Assembly (NCBI RefSeq): GCF_011045215.1
Contig: NZ_CP049202.1
Strand: one strand, 5' to 3'
DNA length: 64,000 bases
DNA from: Escherichia coli
GTDB lineage: Bacteria; Pseudomonadota; Gammaproteobacteria; Enterobacterales; Enterobacteriaceae
The notes beneath the pieces are model-generated. The model was not told where the DNA came from, ran no database searches, and worked only from the letters and a program-made list of their open reading frames with translations. Shown here one piece after another: positions 40,385 to 53,698 of this stretch. Within the stretch, counting starts at the first letter, position 1. The number at the start of each line of letters is the position of its first letter. Position numbers and translations under genes: made by a program.

Positions 40385-43300
40385 TTACCATTGATAACCA
40401 ACCCCCACAGAAGCACCAAAGTCATTCTGGGTATTCCCGCCAGCATGTAATTTCGTTATCCAGTGTCCATTTTGTGATATATGAGAAACACCTACAGCAA
40501 TTGCCGATTCGCCACCATAGGTACCTGCAGATACTCCGACCAGACTTGAATCGGGCTGATAGGCCTGTGGAATTCCTGATAAAGCCATCGATGTTGCGAT
40601 ACCTGCAGTCAGTTTTGTTTTCATATCCCCCATCTTTTTATCAAGAGAATCCACCTTTCTGTCGGTATACTGTTTTAAACTGGAGAAACTTTCATTAAGC
40701 TGTCCTACAGTTACAGCATCAGATCGGTTAACTCCCGGAGCAACATTGGTTATTCTTCGCTGATTCAGTGAAGAGCCAACTGACACTGTGTTATCCTCAC
40801 TTGCTACAGAATTACTCCCGAGGGCCACGCTATTTTTTGATGAAACAGTACTTTTGTTCCCAATACCAATGCTGTTTTCTCCGGTTACATTCACATCAGC
40901 ACCAACTGCAATGGCATTATCTTTTTCTGCTCTGGCGTTACCTCCTAAAGCGATTGCATTTTTACCGGTGGCTTTAGGTTTCATTGTTTTTTCTGAGTTT
41001 ACTGCCAACATTGATGCATCTCCTATACTGCCTGAAACCTCTTTTAACTGGCTGACAGTCACTACATCATTATCATTGACCCCTTCTTTCACCCCTGTTA
41101 TTTGTCGATTACCATCAGTACCACTGACGGTTATTTTCTCGCCGCCACTATTTTTTGCTATTGTCACCTCAGAAAGATTTGAGGATTGCTGAACCAGACC
41201 GACTTTTCCGTCTTCAATGTCTTTTATTCCTGAACTTAACTTATTTATTTCAGTTGTATTCTGGGCAACTTTTTGATTCGTTTCATATAACTGTTTACCA
41301 TTTACAGCATCAGTACTGGTTGCACTGACTGCTCCATCGGCAATCCCTGTTAGAACCCTTTCACCATCCGTCCCGCGAAAATCGACCAGTGCTCCTCCAC
41401 TTCCGGAACCAACAGATATTACTTTGTTGTTTGCATTCTGTTGTACCAAACCACTTTGTCCAGCCTGAAGAGAGTTAATCTTTGATATATTTTCAGTTAA
41501 CGTATTGTCAACAGCAATAAACGCATCCCCCACGTTATATTTACTCTGTCCCTGAATGATATAAACAGGATTTCTGAACTGACTAATATTATCGAATGAA
41601 GCCCCACCACCAAGAGCTGTAGCCACTGAACTCAGGACGGTATTTGTCTGATAAAGCTGACTGCCGGTCACGGCTTCGCTGCTGTCCGCTGCTAGAGTAC
41701 CATCCCGAACGCCGGTCAGGGTACGGACACCGTCCGTACCGGTCAGATCCACTGATGTTCCCCCACTGGCTGCTGCAACGCTGACCACCCGGGATGTCGG
41801 ATCCTGACGTACCAGCCCCACGGAGCCACTGCTGATATTATTCACGTCATTCTGCAGTGTGGTTATATTGCCGGTGTTCGCGGTGACCGAGGTATCCAGT
41901 GCCGTCAGGGCATCCCCCACAGTTGAGCGGCCACTGCCCTGAATCTGATAAGTTGGTGCAGTGAAGGAGCCATCCGTTGCGATGGCGGCCCCGCCACCAA
42001 GACTCTGTGTCAGGCCGGACAGCTGTCCCGTATGCTGTGTCAGTGTCTGCCCCTGGGTTGTGAGGGTTCCGGTGTTGGTGGCGATCGCTGCAGTGTTGGT
42101 GGTCACATTCTGGTTGGTGGTAAAAAGCTGACTGCCGGTCACGGCTTCGCTGCTGTCCGCTGCTAGAGTACCATCCCGGACGCCGGTCAGGGTACGGACA
42201 CCGTCCGTACCGGTCAGATCCACTGATGTTCCCCCACTGGCTGCTGCAACGCTGACCACCCGGGATGTCGGATCCTGACGTACCAGCCCCACGGAGCCAC
42301 TGCTGATATTATTCACGTCATTCTGCAGTGTGGTTATATTGCCGGTGTTCGCGGTGACCGAGGTATCCAGTGCCGTCAGGGCATCCCCCACAGTTGAGCG
42401 GCCACTGCCCTGAATCTGATAAGTTGGTGCAGTGAAGGAGCCATCCGTTGCGATGGCGGCCCCGCCACCAAGACTCTGTGTCAGGCCGGACAGCTGTCCC
42501 GTATGCTGTGTCAGTGTCTGCCCCTGGGTTGTGAGGGTTCCGGTGTTGGTGGCGATCGCTGCAGTGTTGGTGGTCACATTCTGGTTGGTGGTAAAAAGCT
42601 GACTGCCGGTCACGGCTTCGCTGCTGTCCGCTGCTAGAGTACCATCCCGGACGCCGGTCAGGGTACGGACACCGTCCGTACCGGTCAGATCCACTGATGT
42701 TCCCCCACTGGCTGCTGCAACGCTGACCACCCGGGATGTCGGATCCTGACGTACCAGCCCCACGGAGCCACTGCTGATATTATTCACGTCATTCTGCAGT
42801 GTGGTTATATTGCCGGTGTTCGCGGTGACCGAGGTATCCAGTGCCGTCAGGGCATCCCCCACAGTTGAGCGGTCACTGCCCTGAATCTGATAAGTTGGTG
42901 CAGTGAAGGAGCCATCCGTTGCGATGGCGGCCCCGCCCCCCAAAGAGTCGGCAATATTATTAATGTTATTACCGGATTGTGTTAGTGCACTGTTCGTTGC
43001 AAAAAGCTGGCTGCCGTTAACAGCGTCAGTACTGATTCCGGATATTCGTCCGGCTGCAACATTTTGCAGCTGACGTTCTTTCCCTGTATCACCAATACTC
43101 AGGGCTGCTACCGGACTGGTACCTGCGTAGGTATATTCCTTATTATTTATGATACCGGATGTTGTTGCAGTCACAGCGGCTGTTTTTGCCTCACTCCCTA
43201 AAGCCACATCGCCATCATTTGATGAAGATGCTCCCATTCCAATGGCCACACTATTATCGCCCCCGGCATTTGAAACAGACCCCAGAGAAATACTGGAATC

Positions 43301-45223: not shown

Positions 45224-45592
45224 TTAATAGGGTGGGATGTGTTCATTACATTTTTTGAACGCAGCAGCTATCACACGGGTGGTCATCCCTTTGGCATACA
45301 ACGAGAGGATCTGGTTATCTATCCCAGTAATACGGGGCTGATTTTTCTTTACCAGTTGTGGTTCGAAGGTACCGTAACGATCGCGCGGAGTACGCACCTC
45401 CAGTGGACCGTCGCCTGTGATAACAGTCTTTGTGGAATAACCGTTGCGGGAGTTAGCTCCCGGTCTGGACTGATTTTTCTCATATCCAGGGGTTCTGCGC
45501 CCATTTCCTCCAAAAGTCTCACTCTTAGCATAAAAACCATTATTTATCATGTTGTTAACCGTCATATTCGGACTCAATATCTCCGATATCAC
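45224..45592 (-). mobile_element. IS256-family transposase N-terminal fragment
   Basis: 122-aa ORF resembles the N-terminal region of IS256-family transposases. Confidence 0.5.
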
Positions 45593-45661
45593 TTAGTGGG
45601 TCTACTCCCTCCAAAAGACTGAACCGCCCCGGGTTTCCTGGAGAGTGTTTTATCTGTGAAC

Positions 45662-46552
45662 TCAGGCTGCCAGATCATCGTTTCCGATGGAAGCATAATA
45701 AGCTTTTTCTGCTTCTGCCGGTGGGATATGGCCCAGCCTTTCCAGCAATCGTCGATTGTTATACCAGTCCACCCACGTGAGTGTGGACAGCTCCACTTCT
45801 GTCCGGTTTTTCCAGCGCTTACGGTGTATTACCTCCGCTTTGTAAAGGCCATTGATGCTCTCCGCCATCGCGTTGTCATACGAGTCACCAGTACTCCCTG
45901 TTGATGCCAGTAAGCCGGCTTCCTTAAGCCGCTGCGTGTAGGCCAGCGATACATACTGAGAACCTTTATCACTGTGGTGGATTGTGCCGGACGGCCGACG
46001 GGCCCACAACGCCTGCTCCAGTGCATCCGGCACGAATGCCGTTTCCATGGATGATGAGACCCGCCATCCCACGATGTATCCGGCGAACACATCAATGATG
46101 AACGCCACATAAACGAAGCCCTGCCATGTGCTTACCCAGGTAAAATCAGCCACCCACAACTGGTCAGGACGTTCTGCCACGAACTGACGGTTTACGCGGT
46201 CGCATGCGGCAACGGCTTTCCGGCTGACGGTAGTGCGGACCTTTTTACCCCGGAGAACACCGGCAAGTCCCATAACCGCCATGAGACGTGCCACAGTGCA
46301 TCTGGCCACTCTGATACCTTCCCGTAACAACTGACGCCAGACTTTACGCACACCGTATACCTGGTGATTTTCATCGTATACGCGCTGTATCTCTTTCTTC
46401 AGCCAGTCATCGCGCTGCGCACGGGCACTGCGTTTATCAGGATGATGTCGCTGTTGCTGACAGTGGTAATACGTTGACGGGGCAATATGCAGTTCGCTGC
46501 ATACCGGTCCGACCCCGTACTGCTCACGCAGCTTATCCAGCAGTGGCATCAT
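45662..46552 (-). CDS. IS629 OrfB (transposase catalytic subunit)
   Basis: 296-aa ORF with rve-type DDE region. Confidence 0.85.
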
Positions 46553-46875
46553 TTTTTCCAGAGGCGGTCGAACTCCGCCTTCGCAAAATAAGCGGAAGCC
46601 TGGCGAAGGATATCGTTACTGCGGCGCAGTTCACGATTTTCACGTTCCAGCTCTTTCAGACGCTGACGTTCAGCGGTGGTGAGCCCACCATCACCGCCCC
46701 CGGTATCCCGCTCATGCTGGCGTACCCAGACACGCAGAGTCTCCGGCGTACAGCCAATTTTTGGAGCAATGGAACAAATTGCCGCCCACTGTGAATCATA
46801 CTCATCCTGACTTTCCAGAACCATACGAATCGCTCGCTGACGGACTTCGGGGGAAAAACGAGTATTTTTAGTCAT
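46549..46875 (-). CDS. IS629 OrfA
   Basis: 108-aa [22 protein letters not shown]…, HTH plus leucine zipper. Confidence 0.85.
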
Positions 46876-46926
46876 CCTGTTTACCTCTTTCTCAGGGAGT
46901 TTAGTCTCCAGGATTCCCGGGACGGT

Positions 46927-49224
46927 TCAATGATTGTCAGTCGCTAATGACTTTGGTTGTATTTCACTGGTATTGTTATATAACAAGTCAAATGCAAAAT
47001 GACCTTCATATTCATTTGGAGAAATTACCACAGTTGATAATGGCACATGATTAGATACCAGTGTCATCGCAGAACCCCCTTTCCCCTTTCTGAAATACTT
47101 GGCAGAATAACGGGCTTTAAATGTATTTATTCTGCAAGTGTGCTTCTGCCCATCAACACTTCCAAATGGAGAATTTTCATTTATCGTCCAGTATTTATAT
47201 ACAGAAAGATTTGCAATTACATCAGATATTACTGTGTTGGCCATTCCTGTTGTTTCTGGACGAATGAATTTGTCATTCACATCACGTAGTATTCCAATAC
47301 TACGGTCTGATGCAGATGCCATTCTGTGAACACCATAATTTGCGCCATTACCAAATATACAAGCAAGAAGGTCATTATAGTTAGCTTCAAGATTATTTTT
47401 CCTAGATGATATGGCATTAAACACAGACAAAAAATTCGTCTCATTGTTTACATACTTCATTACGTCAACTATCCCGATATTTTTATCTGATTGTAAATCG
47501 GATTATCGATGCTGGTCTTCTATTTTTTACTGGCCAGACTCCACTGTAATCTGTTGGAGTGTGGTTGTTTTTTCACAAACTCATTAACATCTGAGTTTAT
47601 TCCAATGGTTATACGAGCCAGTTTATCGCTAAAGGTATTCTCCAGGTCATTAAGAGTCTGCGTTATTGGTGTGATAAGTCGTTCAAGGCCTGTTTTCTCT
47701 ATCAAAATCGATTTATTCTTATCCCAGTAACTTCGTTCTATGAGATCATCTTCCAGTCTCTTGTTTTGTTCACTCTCCGCAGCATAAAAGACACCGTTTT
47801 CCAGATGGTTAGATACCCTGCTGTACATATGAAATTCGAATCGTTGAGTGTTAATTTCTCCTTTTTTTACAATGTAATTTTTCTCGGATGGATGAATTAC
47901 CCTCAGATCCTTAGCATCCAGCTTTCCTTTTCCTCTGAGATCATCCTTGGCAGCAGTAATTTGCTGGCCAATAACAGACTTCTCGTTGTCATATACTATT
48001 ATCTATAGTCAGAAAAAGCTTTCGGATTGAATTGGCGATCTTAAGGTGATGGCTGTCAATATACTACCATTGATATTCAATTACATCGATTTTATTTTTG
48101 TCAAAAAATTCACTCACAAGATGCATATCATCTTTCGATATAAGTGAAAAAACCTTTTCACGAACATATCCAAACGGGATGCTGTCTTCAATGTTACTAT
48201 CAACGAAGAAGTTAAATATTTTACTCGCAAACTTAAGCTTTTTATTTATTAGATCTATTTCCTCTGTTGCCCGAGCTTTTGCAAACAAAACTGAAGCGTC
48301 TTTATGTTTTTTTACTAAATATCTGAAGGCCGTGATTATTTTATCATTTATCTCTCTGTATCTGAAGTACAAGTAGCAGCACAAATAAAGTATTCCTTGC
48401 CATTTAGGGTGTCGCTTAAGTCTGAATGTTGTACTGTGTTTTACGATAGTTGCATAGTACTCCATGTTTCCCTGGGATATACCTAATGAATTAATTATAT
48501 CTTTTATTTCATAGTAAATACTACTTATCACATTGTGTGTTCTTAATTCATTTTCTATTTCTGATGCTGAGAAGTCCCTCGTGCTATAATTACATCCATC
48601 ATCATGGATGATGGATGTAATCTTTTGTGCAGTGGCAGGATAAATTCTCTTTGACAAAATATTAATTGTCCTTTTCCTTTCAAAGTTTAAAGCATCTGAA
48701 ACGAGGTTCTGGACAGTACTGTATCCAGGAAGAGCTATACGCCGCTGTCCTAAAAAAGCAAGTAATTCATCAAAAATATATTTGGGTTCCATACATATAG
48801 TAGCAACATCATTCAGACGTTCACTTAACTCATTTTTTATAGATGGGGTGAGTTGTTCAAATCCTAGAGTAGAAAGCATTCGTTTAACAAGGCGGTGCTT
48901 TGTACTTTTAGGTATGTTTAAATTGAGATTAGTACTTTCGTTTTTATAATATGTCTGGATAATATATTTCACATCCCTTTTTACGTCTTTTAATGTAAAT
49001 TCAGGAATCACAGGTTTATATCTGAAATACCCTGTTATTAATATCAGATACACCCTGCTTTCTATATTTATTATTTTATCAATTTCTCTTTTAAGGCTGA
49101 TATCCAGCGAAAAAAACTCATCCCTTTCAACAGGATTAAAAGAGGGGACTTGATATAATTCATTTATTTCACTTTTTGTTAATATACTAATTCTTTTCTT
49201 GTACTTCTGCATACATTTACCCAA
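46927..49224 (-). pseudogene. tnpA: Tn3-family transposase (tnpA) remnant, fragmented into three ORFs and 3'-truncated by IS629
   Basis: ORFs 48064..49224, 47520..47828, 46927..47460 resemble N-terminal, middle and DDE regions of Tn3-family TnpA; AT-rich. Confidence 0.55.
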
Positions 49225-49367
49225 ATGCTAAATATTTTTAAATATGGCGAGTATTAAATATTAAGATATCTGATACCTGTCTAAAACAGCATAAAAGCAG
49301 GTTTCAAAAATCGTATTTTGTACATTATGATACCATGCAGTGTCGAAAACGATAAGTGAGACTAAAA

Positions 49368-49949
49368 ATGGCGTTATTGGGGTATGCACGGGTATCAACT
49401 AGTCATCAGAAGCTAACACATCAAATCTCGGAGCTAAAAAATGCCGGGGTACGGGAAGATCGTATTTTTACGGATATGATGACTGGCGCAACTGATGAAC
49501 GGGAAGGACTACAGCGGTTGTTGGCCCGTGCAGAGAAAGACGACGTAATCATCTGTACAAAAATGGACCGACTGGGGCGTAACACTGCTGACATGATTCG
49601 TGTGGTTGATAGCTGTTACAAAAAGGGGATCGCCATCCGGTTCCTGGAGAACGGTCTCAGTACAGAAGGGACAATGGGCAAAATGGTTATCCAAATCCTT
49701 GCTGCTGTAGCTGAAGCGGAACGTGAGCGTATTCTGGAGCGGACAAACGACGGAAGAATAGCGGCACTTGCCGCAGGCGTAAAATTTGGCAGGAAGAAGC
49801 ATCCACGAACGCCTACAGCGTTGGAGCTTATATCACAGGGAGAATCTCTGGGCAGTGTGACAGAAAAAACAGGTATCTCTCGATCGACGTACTTCAGGTT
49901 AAAAAGAACAATAAAAAATGATGCTAAAATTGCAACGTTTTATAAATAA
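49368..49949 (+). CDS. tnpR: Serine recombinase/resolvase (TnpR-like)
   Basis: About 193 aa from Met (MALLGYARVSTS…) within track ORF 49356..49949; catalytic-Ser motif and C-terminal HTH; divergent from tnpA remnant. Confidence 0.8.
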   Translation: MALLGYARVSTSHQKLTHQISELKNAGVREDRIFTDMMTGATDEREGLQRLLARAEKDDVIICTKMDRLGRNTADMIRVVDSCYKKGIAIRFLENGLSTEGTMGKMVIQILAAVAEAERERILERTNDGRIAALAAGVKFGRKKHPRTPTALELISQGESLGSVTEKTGISRSTYFRLKRTIKNDAKIATFYK

Positions 49950-49972
49950 ATTCAATTAATTACCTAAGCAAG

Positions 49973-50587
49973 GTGAGACTTTTAGAGGAAATGGGCGCGA
50001 ACCCCCATAATCTGAGAGAACTGCAGTTCGGTATATACCCTGAGTCAATTCATGTGCTTGACTGGTTTCATATAACGATGAGGCTGACGGTGTTAATGCA
50101 GTATGCAAAGGGACCGCAGGCATCAGAGCCAGCGACGGGCAGTAAGGTGTTATCGCTTCTGGAAAGCAGTAAACGATATCTCTGGCACGGTAATGTTGCC
50201 ACTGCACTGGATCGCATTGACGATTGCGTTATGTACTGTGATGACCATGAACTCAACTATGTAAACCTGAAAGCCCTGCAAAAACAGCTGGATGAGATGT
50301 ATACCTACATCCGCAATAATCAGATGATGATCCCAAACTACGGAGAAATGTGCCGGTATGGTGAGCCGGTTTCAACAGCGTTTGTCGAGTCAACAATCAA
50401 CGAAGTGATCGCCCGACGAATGGCCAAAAAGCAGCAGATGCAGTGGAGTAGAAAGGGCGCGCATTATTTGTTACAGACCAGAACTGCAGTCCTGAATAAC
50501 GAACTACAGGACAAATTCGCCAGTTGGTATCCCGGTTGTACGATAGACGCTCAGAGTAGAGGGACGTTATCCGCGATGGCAGCATAG
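49973..50587 (+). mobile_element. Transposase C-terminal fragment (possibly ISKra4-like); family uncertain
   Basis: 204-aa ORF with transposase-like C-terminal blocks (…LDWFHI…, …QWSRKGAHYLLQTRTAVLN…). Confidence 0.35.
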
Positions 50588-50643
50588 CTACTGCCCCAGG
50601 GTTTTTCATGCTCTCCTTAACTGACCCAGTGAGGTGAAGACCT

Positions 50644-52174
50644 TTGATAATCATAATCAGTGAAATGCAACGCAAGCTTGCCACATGGACAGCAACCGCC
50701 CCGTCCCGACGGATTACACGGCTGCTGCGTCTGATAACACAACCAGAATGGCTGGCTGAAGCCGCACGGATCACCCTTTCATCAAAAAGGGCACATACCC
50801 CCGGTGTTGACGGTGTGAGTAAAGCAAAGCTACAGGCCAGACTGCCTGCTGAGTTGCAGAGACTCAGCGAAGAACTTCTCTCTGGTCACTACCAGCCTGT
50901 ACCAGCCAGACGGATTTATATCCCTAAAAGCAACGGCAAACTGCGACCACTGGGTATCCCCACGTTGCGGGAACGTATTGTTCAGCGGACCATGCTGATG
51001 GCGATGGAGCCGATATGGGAGAGTGATTTTCATGCGCTCTCGTATGGCTTCCGGCCTGAACGCAGTGTCCATCACGCGATCCGCACGGTAAAATTACAGC
51101 TCACCGACGGTAGTGAAACCCGGGGACGCTGGGTGATACAAGGGGGATCTGTCCAGCTACTTCGATACAGTACATCATCGACTGCTGATGAAAGCAGTAC
51201 GCCGCAGGCTCAGGGATCCACGCTTTATGGTCCTGCTGTGGAAAATCATTAAAGCAGGACACGTTGATGTCGAACTCTTCCGGGCGGCCAGTGAAGGTGT
51301 GCCACAGGGCGGAGTGATCTCGCCGTTGCTGTCGAACATCATGCTAAATGAGTTCGACCAGTATCTTCATGAACGTTACCTGAGCGGAAAAGCCCGGAAA
51401 GACAGCTGGTACAGGAATAACAGTATCCAGCGGGGTCGAAGCACAGCAGTCAGTGAAAACTGGCAGTGGAAACCAGCGGTGGCGTACTGCCGCTATGCCG
51501 ATGATTTCGTGCTCATCGTTAAAGGTACTAAATCACAGGCAGAAACCATCAGGGAGGAGTGTCGTAGCGTGCCCGAAGACAGTCTGAAACTCAGGCTGAA
51601 CATGGACAAGACCAGAATCACCCATGTTAACGACGGCTTTATCTTTCTGGGGCGCAGGATTATCCGCAAACGCAGTCGTTACGGCGGTATGCGGGTGGTC
51701 ACGACGATCCCACGTGATAAAGCCAGAAACTTCGCGGCATCCCTGACGACATTGTTATCAGGCAATTACAGTGAAAGCAAAATCGATATGGTTGAGATAC
51801 TCAACCGAAAGCTGAAAGGCTGAGCTGCGTTCTATCAGTTAGTTGATTTTAAAGCCAAAGTGTTCAGTTCTATCGACCGAGTTGTGTTCTGGAAGCTGGC
51901 TCACTGGCTGGCCCGAAAATACCGTAAAAGTATTGCATACCTGATGAGGTGGTGGTGTAAATCGCCAAAACTAGGTCAGAGTAAAACGTGGATTTTATTT
52001 GGTAAAACCAACCACGGGAAGCTCAACGGTGAAGTACTTTACCGGTTGGTCGGACAAGGCAAGAAGTCGTTCCGCTGGCGTGTGCCTGAGAGTAACCCTT
52101 ACCTGAGGACAGAGACCAGAAACACGTACACGTCACGATATCCGGAAGTGGCAATGGCACTAGCCAGCGTTTAG
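50644..52174 (+). pseudogene. Group II intron reverse transcriptase/maturase, inactivated (one frameshift, one in-frame TGA)
   Basis: Three consecutive ORFs carry RT domains (…GVDGVS…, YADD in AYCRYADDFVLIV) and maturase domain; frame change near the G-run at ~51141; TGG-to-TGA at ~51824. Confidence 0.75.
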
Positions 52175-52249
52175 ACGGAAAGCCGGATGCGCTGAAAGGT
52201 GCACGTCCGGTTTGGAGAGGAGAGACAGGGAAATAGCCCGACTACGCCC

Positions 52250-52790
52250 TGTCTCTTACTCTACTCAGCACATGGCAGGGCTTCGTCTATGTGGCGTTCA
52301 TCATTGATGTGTTTGCCGGATACATTGTGGGATGGAGGGCCTCATCGTCCATGGAAACGACATTTGTGCTGGATGCACTGGAGCGTCGACCGTCCGGCAC
52401 TGTCCATCACAGTGATAAGGGTTCTCAGTATGTATCACTAGCCTACACGCAACGGCTAAAGGAAGCCGGATTACTGGCATCAACAGGGAGTACAGGCGAC
52501 TCATATGACAACTCGATGGCGGAGAGCATCAATGGTCTTTACAAAGCGGAGGTAATACATCGTAAGAGCTGGAAAAACCGTGCAGAAGTGAAACTGGCCA
52601 CACTCACATGGGTGGACTGGTATAACAATCAACGCTTACTGGAAAGGCTGGGCCATATCCCTCCGTCAGAAGCAGAAAAAGCGTATTATGCTTCCATCGG
52701 AAATGATGATCTGGCAGCCTGAGTTCACAGATAAAACTCTCTCCAGGAAACAGGAAACCCAGGGCGGTTCAGATATGTCCACGATGCGTG
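52250..52790 (+). mobile_element. IS629-like fragment (3' part of orfB plus terminal repeat)
   Basis: ORF 52291..52722 near-identical to the C-terminal half of IS629 OrfB; IR-like sequence at ~52735-52790. Confidence 0.7.
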
Positions 52791-52948: not shown

Positions 52949-53698
52949 TTACGATATATTAATCATGTTTTTTTTCATTTCCATTGGAGTGATACCAAAG
53001 TATTGCCTGAAGGTACTAATGAAATAAGAAGTACTTGAATATCCACATCTTGTTGCTAACTTATTTATAGATAATTCACTTATCATTAAACGTCTGGCAT
53101 GTTGCATACGCACATCTAACAAGATTTGAGAAAAAGATGTGTTTTCTTCATAAAGTTTTCTTTTTATAGAACTTTCACTCATGTAAAGATACTGCCCAAT
53201 ATCTTTCATTTTCCATATTCGTGATGGTTGTGAATATATAATACATCTTATTTTCATTACCAATGAGTTGATGCTTTTAACCAACAGAGATAAGAACCCT
53301 GTTTGCTCAGAAAATGCTGAAATACATGTAAAAAACATCTGCTCTGAAAATGCAATGGGTAGTAATGTATCGGAATTGAGTTTTCGTATTATACTGCGTA
53401 AGATAGATACCTCTTCTAATGGTGCTTTTATATAATGTGTAACATTCGGATTTTCTACATACAATGGTATACAGGTGCATTCCAGATACTTTGTTATTGT
53501 TTTTTCACTAATTTTTAATTCTGTAAATTTACTGGAATATACATAAAAATCATATCTTGATCTACTATCTGTTAGAAAAGCATGATTTTTATTTGCTTTT
53601 ATTTTTTTTCCATCGATGTTAATGATGAATGATGAATTAACCAGAATTACTGAACAGGGATACATCTCAATTGCTCCATTATTTAGTTCATAAGCCAT
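52949..53698 (-). CDS. AraC-family virulence-type regulator (AggR/Rns/PerA-like, C-terminal HTH)
   Basis: 249-aa ORF; C-terminal …GYSSTSYFISTFRQYFGITP… typical of this subfamily; very AT-rich. Confidence 0.65.
   Translation of the reverse strand: MAYELNNGAIEMYPCSVILVNSSFIINIDGKKIKANKNHAFLTDSRSRYDFYVYSSKFTELKISEKTITKYLECTCIPLYVENPNVTHYIKAPLEEVSILRSIIRKLNSDTLLPIAFSEQMFFTCISAFSEQTGFLSLLVKSINSLVMKIRCIIYSQPSRIWKMKDIGQYLYMSESSIKRKLYEENTSFSQILLDVRMQHARRLMISELSINKLATRCGYSSTSYFISTFRQYFGITPMEMKKNMINIS

Follow-up and report, generated by a model that had tools for sequence, protein, structure and literature searches.

When a transposon has lost its transposase, does the site-specific recombination module left beside it still work, or has the whole element become inert? 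The question is raised by a Tn3-family locus in a 64,000-nucleotide stretch of Escherichia coli DNA (contig NZ_CP049202.1), analysed at its full length and referred to here as the window. The first-pass annotation had described an AT-rich remnant at 46927-49949, with tnpA in three open reading frames and an intact divergent resolvase. We read the locus as a larger unit: with a probability of about 0.85, positions 45489-50006 (4.5 kb) are a defective copy of a minimal, unnamed Tn3-family transposon of 3.9 kb, and the resolution module of this copy is structurally complete (Table 1). The interval given earlier covers the core of this unit, but it misses the last 21 codons of tnpA together with IRL (45489-45619), IRR (49973-50006) and a deletion of 668-670 bp. 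The combination of a dead transposase with a surviving resolvase gene and recombination site is common and unremarkable.

Table 1 Features of the defective element and of its immediate flanks (window coordinates).
Feature	Position	Strand	Remarks
Left flank: IS256-family transposase fragment	45224-45488	-	Pfam Transposase_mut, NCBIfam transpos_IS256, profile positions 6-87 of 338
IRL	45489-45522		GGGGTTCTGCGCCCATTTCCTCCAAAAGTCTCAC; cut off from remaining element by the IS
tnpA 3' stub	45555-45619	-	codons 992-1012 + stop codon
IS3-family insertion sequence (IS629/IS1203-like)	45620-46929	-	1310 bp, TGA...TCA ends; abuts tnpA fragment 3
orfB of IS	45662-46552	-	
Frameshift pseudoknot of IS	46478-46594	-	Rfam ALIL, 121 bits
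orfA of IS	46549-46875	-	
tnpA fragment 3	46930-47484	-	aa 584-768; first half of DDE domain incl. D694, D766
tnpA fragment 2	47472-47999	-	aa 412-587
tnpA fragment 1	48001-49212	-	aa 1-411, DUF4158/DNA-binding part; start codon at 49212
res, three subsites	49250-49363		between tnpA and tnpR
res site I (28 bp, predicted crossover site)	49250-49277		central dinucleotide AA at 49263-49264
res site II (34-35 bp)	49300-49334		half-sites GGTTTCA, GGTATCA
res site III (25 bp)	49339-49363		half-sites AGTGTCG, AGTCTCA; ends 4 bp short of tnpR ATG
tnpR	49368-49949	+	193-aa serine resolvase, identical to WP_001196199.1
IRR	49973-50006		pairs with IRL
Right flank: 3' 611 bp of ISEc51 (ISKra4 family)	50007-50617	+	NCBIfam transpos_ISKra4, profile positions 270-422 of 422

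The layout is IRL, tnpA (leftward), res, tnpR (rightward) and IRR, and passenger genes are absent. IRL and IRR form a 34-nt inverted repeat that is 88% complementary, and both are intact in the window copy. Tn3-family ends are taken to be repeats of ~38 bp starting with GGGG, a description that we judge to fit these 34-nt GGGG-type repeats; the transposase has the expected size of ~1000 aa, DUF4158 forming its N-terminal DNA-binding region and DDE_Tnp_Tn3 its catalytic domain, and the internal resolution site and cognate recombinase of the family are both in place. An intact relative (L002) is 98.3% identical and has IRs of the same length and type; its TnpA has 1012 aa and reaches 604 bits against NCBIfam transpos_Tn3, above the cut-off of 500. 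Positions 7200-7332 of L002 are 100% identical to 45489-45621 of the window. Intact copies flanked by 5-bp target duplications are found in E. coli, E. albertii, Citrobacter and Providencia. IRL and IRR of the Citrobacter copy are identical to each other, and one strain has two identical copies on two plasmids, an indirect sign of replicative transposition through a cointegrate. In PLSDB the element, intact or fragmentary, is found on ~145 enterobacterial plasmids, pAA of the O104:H4 outbreak strain among them. No name was found for it, and having its ends, res site and lesions defined is of value mostly for the annotation of this cryptic transposon.

The minus-strand ORFs 48064-49224, 47520-47828 and 46927-47460 are indeed consecutive parts of one Tn3-family transposase: they carry Pfam matches to DUF4158 (E 7e-27) and DDE_Tnp_Tn3 (E 1e-43) and align by tblastn, in order and at 96-97% identity, with successive segments of the intact relative. 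Fragment 1 has lost 21 bp in frame after 48594 (7 codons, aa about 206-212), and its codon Q390 has become a stop (48064-48066). Between it and fragment 2 a single T has been inserted at 47999; fragment 2 contains a W571-to-stop change (TGG to TAG) at 47520-47522 and is in turn split from fragment 3 by a 1-bp deletion at about 47479-47480. The end of the gene is found on the other side of the IS, where tblastn places aa 992-1012 at 45620-45558 with 100% identity, and the deletion beside the IS has removed aa 769-991. Catalytic residues were located via Tn4430 TnpA, whose DDE triad is taken from PMC9579193; the predicted catalytic E896, the equivalent of Tn4430 E881, is lost. With two nonsense codons, two frameshifts, a 7-codon deletion, and an IS insertion plus adjacent deletion, tnpA is irreversibly dead, and the element is unable to move on its own. 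As both IRs survive, the transposase of an intact sibling could mobilise it in trans.

The insertion that cuts tnpA had been named IS629. The element abutting fragment 3 is a 1310-bp, IS629-like member of the IS3 family, with orfA and orfB, a programmed -1 frameshift and an NCBIfam transpos_IS3 match of 309 bits. Its OrfA presumably resembles that of IS629, RefSeq labels it just "IS3 family transposase", and one plasmid match (16-kb region search, 91.5% mean identity) has IS1203 family among its annotated features. The same IS is full-length in 3042 E. coli genomes. No target duplication surrounds it here (GAC versus ATG at its two sides).

A search for res upstream of tnpR, suggested in the first-pass annotation, yields a complete three-subsite site, whose architecture was called by alignment to the experimentally defined gamma-delta res and whose crossover position is predicted. 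MAFFT needs only one 1-bp gap to align positions 49250-49367 with gamma-delta res and a gamma-delta-type Yersinia res, GT at positions 2-3 being invariant in every left half-site of the alignment. Subsites and spacers measure 28/22/35/4/25 bp here versus 28/22/34/5/25 bp in gamma-delta res, a match within 1 bp. Site II contains a sigma-70-like TTCAAA-17-TATGAT motif (49303-49331) directed toward tnpR, and gamma-delta res likewise has a promoter-like motif within site II. The two sites differ in their half-sites, RGTNTC(A) here versus YGTCYG there, and in their central dinucleotide, AA versus AT. The half-site GTATCAAATAT, searched in the window with up to 3 mismatches, gave 255 matches versus 221 expected, which is uninformative, so the res assignment rests on the gamma-delta alignment instead. 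Only one site I-like sequence is present in the window.

The recombinase encoded next to this site appears equally complete. The divergent ORF (49356/49368-49949) matches Pfam Resolvase (E 5e-38, 131 bits), and its product aligns with gamma-delta resolvase (1gdt) over 178 aa at 49% identity (E 3e-51). Residues Y6, R8, S10, D36, R45, D67, R68, R71, E118, R119, E124 and R125 are conserved, so that the Ser10 nucleophile and the Arg8/Asp67/Arg68/Arg71/Glu124 set are aligned and conserved with respect to both 1gdt and 5cy1. The catalytic region is thus intact, as had been claimed, and no inactivating substitution is seen against gamma-delta and Tn3 resolvase; residue 2 is Ala here and Arg in gamma-delta resolvase. 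In the putative C-terminal HTH region the alignment to gamma-delta reaches residue 178 (SRSTYFR versus ARSTVYK), with Pfam HTH_7 under its cut-off (E 0.009). A literature search for WP_001196199 gave no match. The divergent tnpA and tnpR, with res between them and site III beside tnpR, are arranged as in gamma-delta (Tn1000) and Tn3. The transposases, in contrast, show no close relation, their identity being 24% and confined to the C-terminal 400 aa.

One base of site I departs from this picture. The left half-site in the window is AGTATT, whereas all relatives have AGTATC or AGTCTC, a C-to-T change at 49255; C occupies this position in 29/29 other half-sites examined (five in the window and 24 in four relatives). 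Site III of the window also differs, at 49345, and site I of the Providencia copy forms a perfect 11+4+11 palindrome. The T at 49255 may weaken the crossover site, and resolvase activity is not assured because this invariant base is mutated. Homology to the tnpA-less loci L007 and L009 begins exactly at the outer boundary of site I, as one would expect if exchange took place at res site I (PMC7157771). As a marker of the crossover point itself we rejected this break, which falls at the outer edge and not at the centre of site I, likely because any functional partner site needs a similar left half-site.

Based on these features, it is plausible that the res-tnpR module resolves cointegrates and plasmid dimers. 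Each of the three subsites would be occupied by TnpR dimers, and a supercoiled molecule with two res sites in direct repeat would form a synapse between them. Strand exchange at the centre of site I would then yield monomers from plasmid dimers, or from cointegrates that an intact sibling element had produced. As in Tn3, the binding of res by TnpR may also repress the divergent promoters. An active resolvase could help to resolve plasmid dimers or cointegrates, and its recombination with compatible res sites on incoming elements could add to plasmid reshuffling. TnpR may nonetheless be redundant for dimer resolution, because a tyrosine recombinase is already encoded by the plasmid beside its RepFIB-type replicon (1257-1997).

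The alternative that survives best is that the whole element, res and tnpR included, is an inert relic, its mutated site I inactive and its tnpR spared as a five-fold smaller target over too little time; we regard this as rather unlikely. Scaled to the shorter tnpR, the 5-6 disabling lesions of tnpA predict 1.0-1.1, so that its escape is unremarkable by this count (P(0) = 0.32-0.38). The substitution at 49255 and the tyrosine recombinase adjoining the replicon point the same way, as do the many plasmids on which tnpR of this element survives only as a truncated and clearly dead remnant, for example pAA of O104:H4 and ETEC H10407. However, tnpR differs from an intact copy by a single synonymous change, and with non-synonymous changes as the basis (none in tnpR versus 12 plus 2 nonsense in tnpA) P(0) falls to 0.033; at P about 0.03, the statistics favour selection on tnpR only weakly to modestly. 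Two broader patterns also argue against a relic. In four independently inactivated copies (window/C5, L003, L019 and L020) tnpR is full-length with at most one amino-acid change, and tnpA-less res-tnpR-IRR modules persist on small plasmids, where they adjoin replication, toxin-antitoxin and partition genes with a dN/dS of about 0.09 (0.07-0.09 for tnpR of the window versus tnpA-less copies).

Orphan transposon resolvases are known as plasmid multimer-resolution functions, examples being the per function of R46 and ParA/res of RP4. Related modules here resemble them: res-tnpR without tnpA, 88% identical, lies in stable-inheritance regions of Hafnia, Serratia and IncX5 plasmids, whereas in the window, where a tyrosine recombinase is also at hand, we only infer a stabilising role. 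That the defective element as such has been retained for its usefulness to the plasmid, and not merely for want of time to decay, seems to us improbable. Were it so, res-tnpR may serve as a dimer or cointegrate resolution system with a specificity of its own (half-sites RGTATC, crossover AA), the surviving IRs could make the plasmid immune as a target for intact siblings, and the N-terminal, DNA-binding fragment of TnpA, still open over 382 codons, might aid immunity or act as an inhibitor. This fragment has 2 non-synonymous versus 5 synonymous changes, and the rest of the gene 12 versus 4.

The same 88%-identical modules might suggest that the recombinase is a multimer-resolution system of the plasmid backbone and only by chance the neighbour of a transposase pseudogene. 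We consider this very improbable, since intact copies carry tnpR and res within the IR pair, with the 5-bp duplications outside, and even the tnpA-less copies still have IRR just downstream of tnpR. A Hin/Gin/Pin-type invertase flipping a segment of the IS-rich region, as the inversion proposed earlier for the resolvase would imply, is barely credible: the predicted crossover dinucleotide AA is non-palindromic, as in invertase sites, but the protein scores 176 bits against gamma-delta resolvase and 87 against Gin-type invertases, the site shows the three-subsite architecture of a resolvase, and the window holds a single res and a single serine recombinase. Of the two roles first suggested for the protein, resolution thus stays plausible and inversion does not.

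Reading the locus, then, as a defective transposon with a structurally complete resolution module, we can ask where it came from. The homology search proposed for the Tn3-family lineage finds IS3000 as the nearest named TnpA (33.6% identity over its full length), the value on which a tentative subgroup placement rests. A Shewanella algae relative (58% identity) has the order tnpR, phd/yefM, parE, tnpA, as reported for TnSpu1 of the Tn3000 subgroup (PMC7157771). The present element differs from this subgroup in being far more AT-rich (34.5% GC), in lacking toxin-antitoxin or passenger genes, and in having tnpR divergent from and directly adjacent to tnpA. Its base composition had been described as much lower than that of neighbouring IS elements; this holds for the tnpA remnant (34.4% GC) and the intergenic region with res (29.0%) against the IS (54.2%), but not for tnpR (46.6%; whole window, 45.8%), whose GC3 is 0.43 versus 0.31 for tnpA. 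With tnpR at 47% GC and AT-richness confined to tnpA and res, the element is a mosaic whose tnpA and tnpR modules have different histories. The low-GC donor suggested earlier is plausible, because the closest equally AT-rich tnpA copies are in Providencia and Yersinia. The locus thereby exemplifies modular evolution from two sides: one TnpA lineage carries either the present res/tnpR or a gamma-delta-type res/tnpR, and res-tnpR-IRR modules outlive tnpA on plasmids.

Lastly, the flanks record a later rearrangement at one end of the element, as they are unlike each other and the 5 bp adjoining IRL (ATCCA) and IRR (ATAAT) form no target duplication. Such duplications are present in relatives from Citrobacter (AATAA), E. 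albertii (AAAAT), E. coli (ATGTT) and Providencia (TTTTA); L002 and L003 are likewise without one. The right flank is 98.2% identical to annotated ISEc51, the other half of which was sought in the window and not found. An intramolecular transposition deletion, or else recombination of two copies with each other, probably produced the rearrangement. The host molecule is an E. coli-type plasmid. Among complete E. coli genomes, none spans 36-52 kb of the window, which is collinear with E. coli C5 plasmid A only from 42906 onward and has an extra 3.7-kb segment at 56752-60455.

Near-identical copies of the element with an uninterrupted 1012-aa TnpA were recovered by Megablast in PLSDB from E. coli FHI_NMBU_11 (on two plasmids, with identical TnpA), E. 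albertii and Salmonella, together with a Citrobacter copy at 86-87% identity. The intact relative L002 measures 3900 bp, has a GGGG-type inverted repeat of 34 nt at each end (88% complementarity between the two) and holds nothing beyond tnpA and tnpR, which are separated by a 155-bp intergenic region; against NCBIfam transpos_Tn3, where the cut-off is 500 bits, intact TnpA reaches 604. Four copies are flanked by target duplications (Table), which marks the element as a true Tn3-family transposon of minimal build that has moved recently. It is an unnamed representative of a class that is thoroughly understood. Inspection of the flanks of L002 and of L003, a copy with a broken tnpA, revealed no duplication.

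At 45489-45621 the window reproduces the left end of the intact copy (the inverted repeat IRL and the last 21 tnpA codons) with 100% identity, and 46930-50012 corresponds to the remainder. The element therefore occupies 45489-50006, and the first-pass annotation, which had placed a remnant at 46927-49949, found the element but set its ends too far inward. The interruption, attributed there to IS629, is a 1310-bp IS3-family element, labeled in RefSeq only as 'IS3 family transposase'; its ends read TGAACCGCCCC...GGTTCA, and it carries both orfA and orfB as well as a frameshift pseudoknot of the ALIL type. It has no target duplication (GAC vs ATG at its two sides), and 668-670 bp of adjacent tnpA (aa 769-991), a loss that had been overlooked, are gone; both features fit a deletion that the IS generated next to itself, or else recombination between two copies of it.

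Features of the window element and target duplications of related copies
Feature	Position or copy	Sequence or basis
res site I	49250-49277	scripted coordinates
res site II	49300-49334	scripted coordinates
res site III	49339-49363	scripted coordinates
tnpA, 21-bp in-frame deletion	after 48594	
tnpA, Q390 to stop	48064-48066	
tnpA, +1 T insertion	47999	
tnpA, W571 to stop	47520-47522	
tnpA, 1-bp deletion	about 47479-47480	
tnpA, IS insertion and adjacent deletion	45620-46929	
5-bp target duplication	Citrobacter copy	AATAA
5-bp target duplication	E. albertii copy	AAAAT
5-bp target duplication	E. coli L006 copy	ATGTT
5-bp target duplication	Providencia copy	TTTTA

The element is flanked on the left by an IS256-family transposase fragment and on the right by the last 611 bp of ISEc51 (ISKra4 family), the other half of which was absent when searched for in the window. 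The unlike 5-bp flanks (ATCCA vs ATAAT) and the missing ISEc51 half indicate that one end was rejoined after insertion, as either an intramolecular transposition deletion or two-copy recombination would produce. A group II intron (50618-52268) separates the ISEc51 fragment from another IS629-like fragment (52269-52751, 89% identical to the first IS629-like copy); the reverse-transcriptase/maturase ORFs of the intron (50644-52174) are frameshifted, and Rfam Intron_gpII gives a domain match at 52178-52264. Just right of this IS cluster lies an AraC-family regulator (52949-53698, minus strand; HTH_18 and HTH_AraC) in very AT-rich DNA (22-35% GC). Identity to E. coli C5 plasmid A (NZ_CP010123.1) is 99.9% but begins only at 42906, and at 56752-60455 the window has 3.7 kb more than that plasmid; upstream of 42906 it matches other ruminant-associated IncFIB plasmids with Pef/Afr-type fimbriae and YadA-like adhesins, and no record among the sequences compared spans it entirely.

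The ORF listing and Pfam scans show the transposase split, as first described, into three minus-strand ORFs in succession (48064-49224, 47520-47828 and 46927-47460), with DUF4158 on the first and the first half of DDE_Tnp_Tn3 on the last. Alignment to Tn4430 TnpA, whose catalytic triad is D679/D751/E881 (PMC9579193), predicts D694, D766 and E896, of which E896 lies within the deleted part. Relative to the intact copy, tnpA carries 9 synonymous, 12 non-synonymous and 2 nonsense changes, a dN/dS of ~0.34, or ~0.4 when the nonsense changes are counted as non-synonymous. The N-terminal 382-codon fragment (48064-49212, minus strand; DUF4158) has 2 non-synonymous vs 5 synonymous changes, and its sole indel is in frame; the remainder has 12 vs 4 (Fisher P = 0.066), a contrast that may reflect chance or residual constraint.

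On the plus strand, the divergent ORF that ends at 49949 contains a Pfam Resolvase domain. Starting from the ATG at 49368, tnpR encodes 193 aa and is a single synonymous base apart from L002; one accession, WP_001196199.1, covers the E. coli, E. albertii and Salmonella copies. Over residues 1-178 the protein matches the resolvases of gamma-delta (1gdt, E 3e-51) and Tn3; BLASTP gives 49% identity. Alignment to both revealed no inactivating substitution, so the caveat entered in the first-pass annotation falls away, and the catalytic region is intact as claimed there: Y6, R8, S10, D36, R45, D67, R68, R71, E118, R119, E124 and R125 are all kept. Resolution, one of the two activities suggested earlier, is plausible, whereas inversion is unlikely, Gin-type invertases reaching only 87 bits, half the resolvase score.

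The res site sought upstream of tnpR was located by alignment to the experimentally defined gamma-delta res of plasmid F. With MAFFT, 49250-49367 aligns to this site and to a Yersinia pekkanenii gamma-delta-type res with one 1-bp gap only; every left half-site has GT at positions 2-3, and every right end has AC. Spacers are 22 and 4 bp, with 4 bp from site III to the tnpR ATG, as opposed to a gamma-delta layout of 28-bp site I, 22-bp spacer, 34-bp site II, 5-bp spacer and 25-bp site III, 5 bp from the start codon. Window half-sites read RGTNTC(A), mostly GGTATCA, in contrast to YGTCYG in gamma-delta. In the Providencia copy, site I is a perfect palindrome, GTATCAAATAT-TAAG-ATATTTGATAC, which places the predicted 2-bp crossover at AA, 49263-49264. 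Site II contains a TTCAAA-17-TATGAT motif oriented toward tnpR, not enriched over shuffles in the scan, whose position agrees with the autoregulated promoters of Tn3 (PMC7157771). Position 49255 in site I is T in the window and C5 plasmid A, and C in all other 29 half-sites examined (5 in the window and 24 in four relatives), which makes it a suspicious mutation; site III differs further at 49345.

TnpA is 85-100% identical in E. coli/Salmonella, 80% in Providencia, 72-79% in Yersinia and 54-60% in distant relatives from Aeromonas, Xenorhabdus, Shewanella, Vibrio and Photobacterium. The homology search gave IS3000 as the nearest named transposase (33.6% over full length), as opposed to 28.9% for Tn4401 and 24%, at the C-terminus only, for gamma-delta. 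In Y. pekkanenii (CQAZ01000076.1, 131-292), a TnpA of the same lineage (74%) accompanies a res of gamma-delta type (28/22/34/5/25 bp) and a resolvase resembling that of gamma-delta; by sequence, the res/tnpR module has clearly been swapped while the transposase lineage stayed the same. Conversely, res-tnpR-IRR of the window type (IRR, right inverted repeat) occurs without tnpA in Hafnia, Serratia and IncX5 plasmids at 88% nucleotide identity, the homology starting precisely at site I's outer edge, as would be expected from the exchange at res site I described previously (PMC7157771). Such exchange would explain why the composition of tnpR (GC3 0.43) is unlike that of tnpA (0.31). The AT-richness noted earlier relative to neighboring IS (54.2% GC; whole window 45.8%) holds for the tnpA remnant (34.4%) and the res-containing intergenic region (29.0%) but not for tnpR (46.6%). 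AT-richness of tnpA (34-36% GC, GC3 about 0.30) extends across E. coli, Citrobacter, Providencia and Yersinia; relatives in Aeromonas, Vibrio and Shewanella have 46-48% GC.

Based on these comparisons, we consider it plausible, with a probability of roughly 0.55-0.6, that the window res-tnpR module is still functional. At the tnpA-remnant rate, 3.4 non-synonymous changes would be expected in tnpR and none is observed (P = 0.033), tnpR accounts for only 1 of the 24 substitutions (P = 0.031), and comparison with the tnpA-less copies gives it a dN/dS of 0.07-0.09. About one disabling lesion would be expected (P(0) = 0.32-0.38), and full-length tnpR in all four independently broken tnpA copies (window/C5, L003, L019, L020) is not significant given the five-fold target-size difference. 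A tyrosine recombinase (1257-1997, minus strand) beside the Rep3/RepFIB-type replication initiator (1-978) is possibly the plasmid's own multimer-resolution function, and dead remnants of the element, plainly non-functional, persist on many plasmids; together with the mixed statistics, these keep the function of the module at plausible only. The first-pass reading was otherwise essentially right, the corrections being to extent, IS-adjacent deletion, AT-rich scope, inversion and the site I mutation.

A roughly 630-bp miniature derivative is found on pAA-EA11 (NC_018666.1, 3961-4590), among the pAA plasmids of EAEC O104:H4, with a 42-bp IRL that runs straight into tnpR at codon 17; the remaining tnpR and IRR come next, and there is no target duplication. 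The annotated 'recombinase family protein' therefore lacks residues 1-16, including Y6, R8 and S10. Fragments of the tnpR/IRR end (query 49240-50010) occur in 145 PLSDB plasmids, 132 of them from Escherichia, ETEC H10407 included; most are IRR-proximal scraps of 70-250 bp, with at least 80% of res-tnpR-IRR in only 18 plasmids and at least 80% of tnpA in 10.
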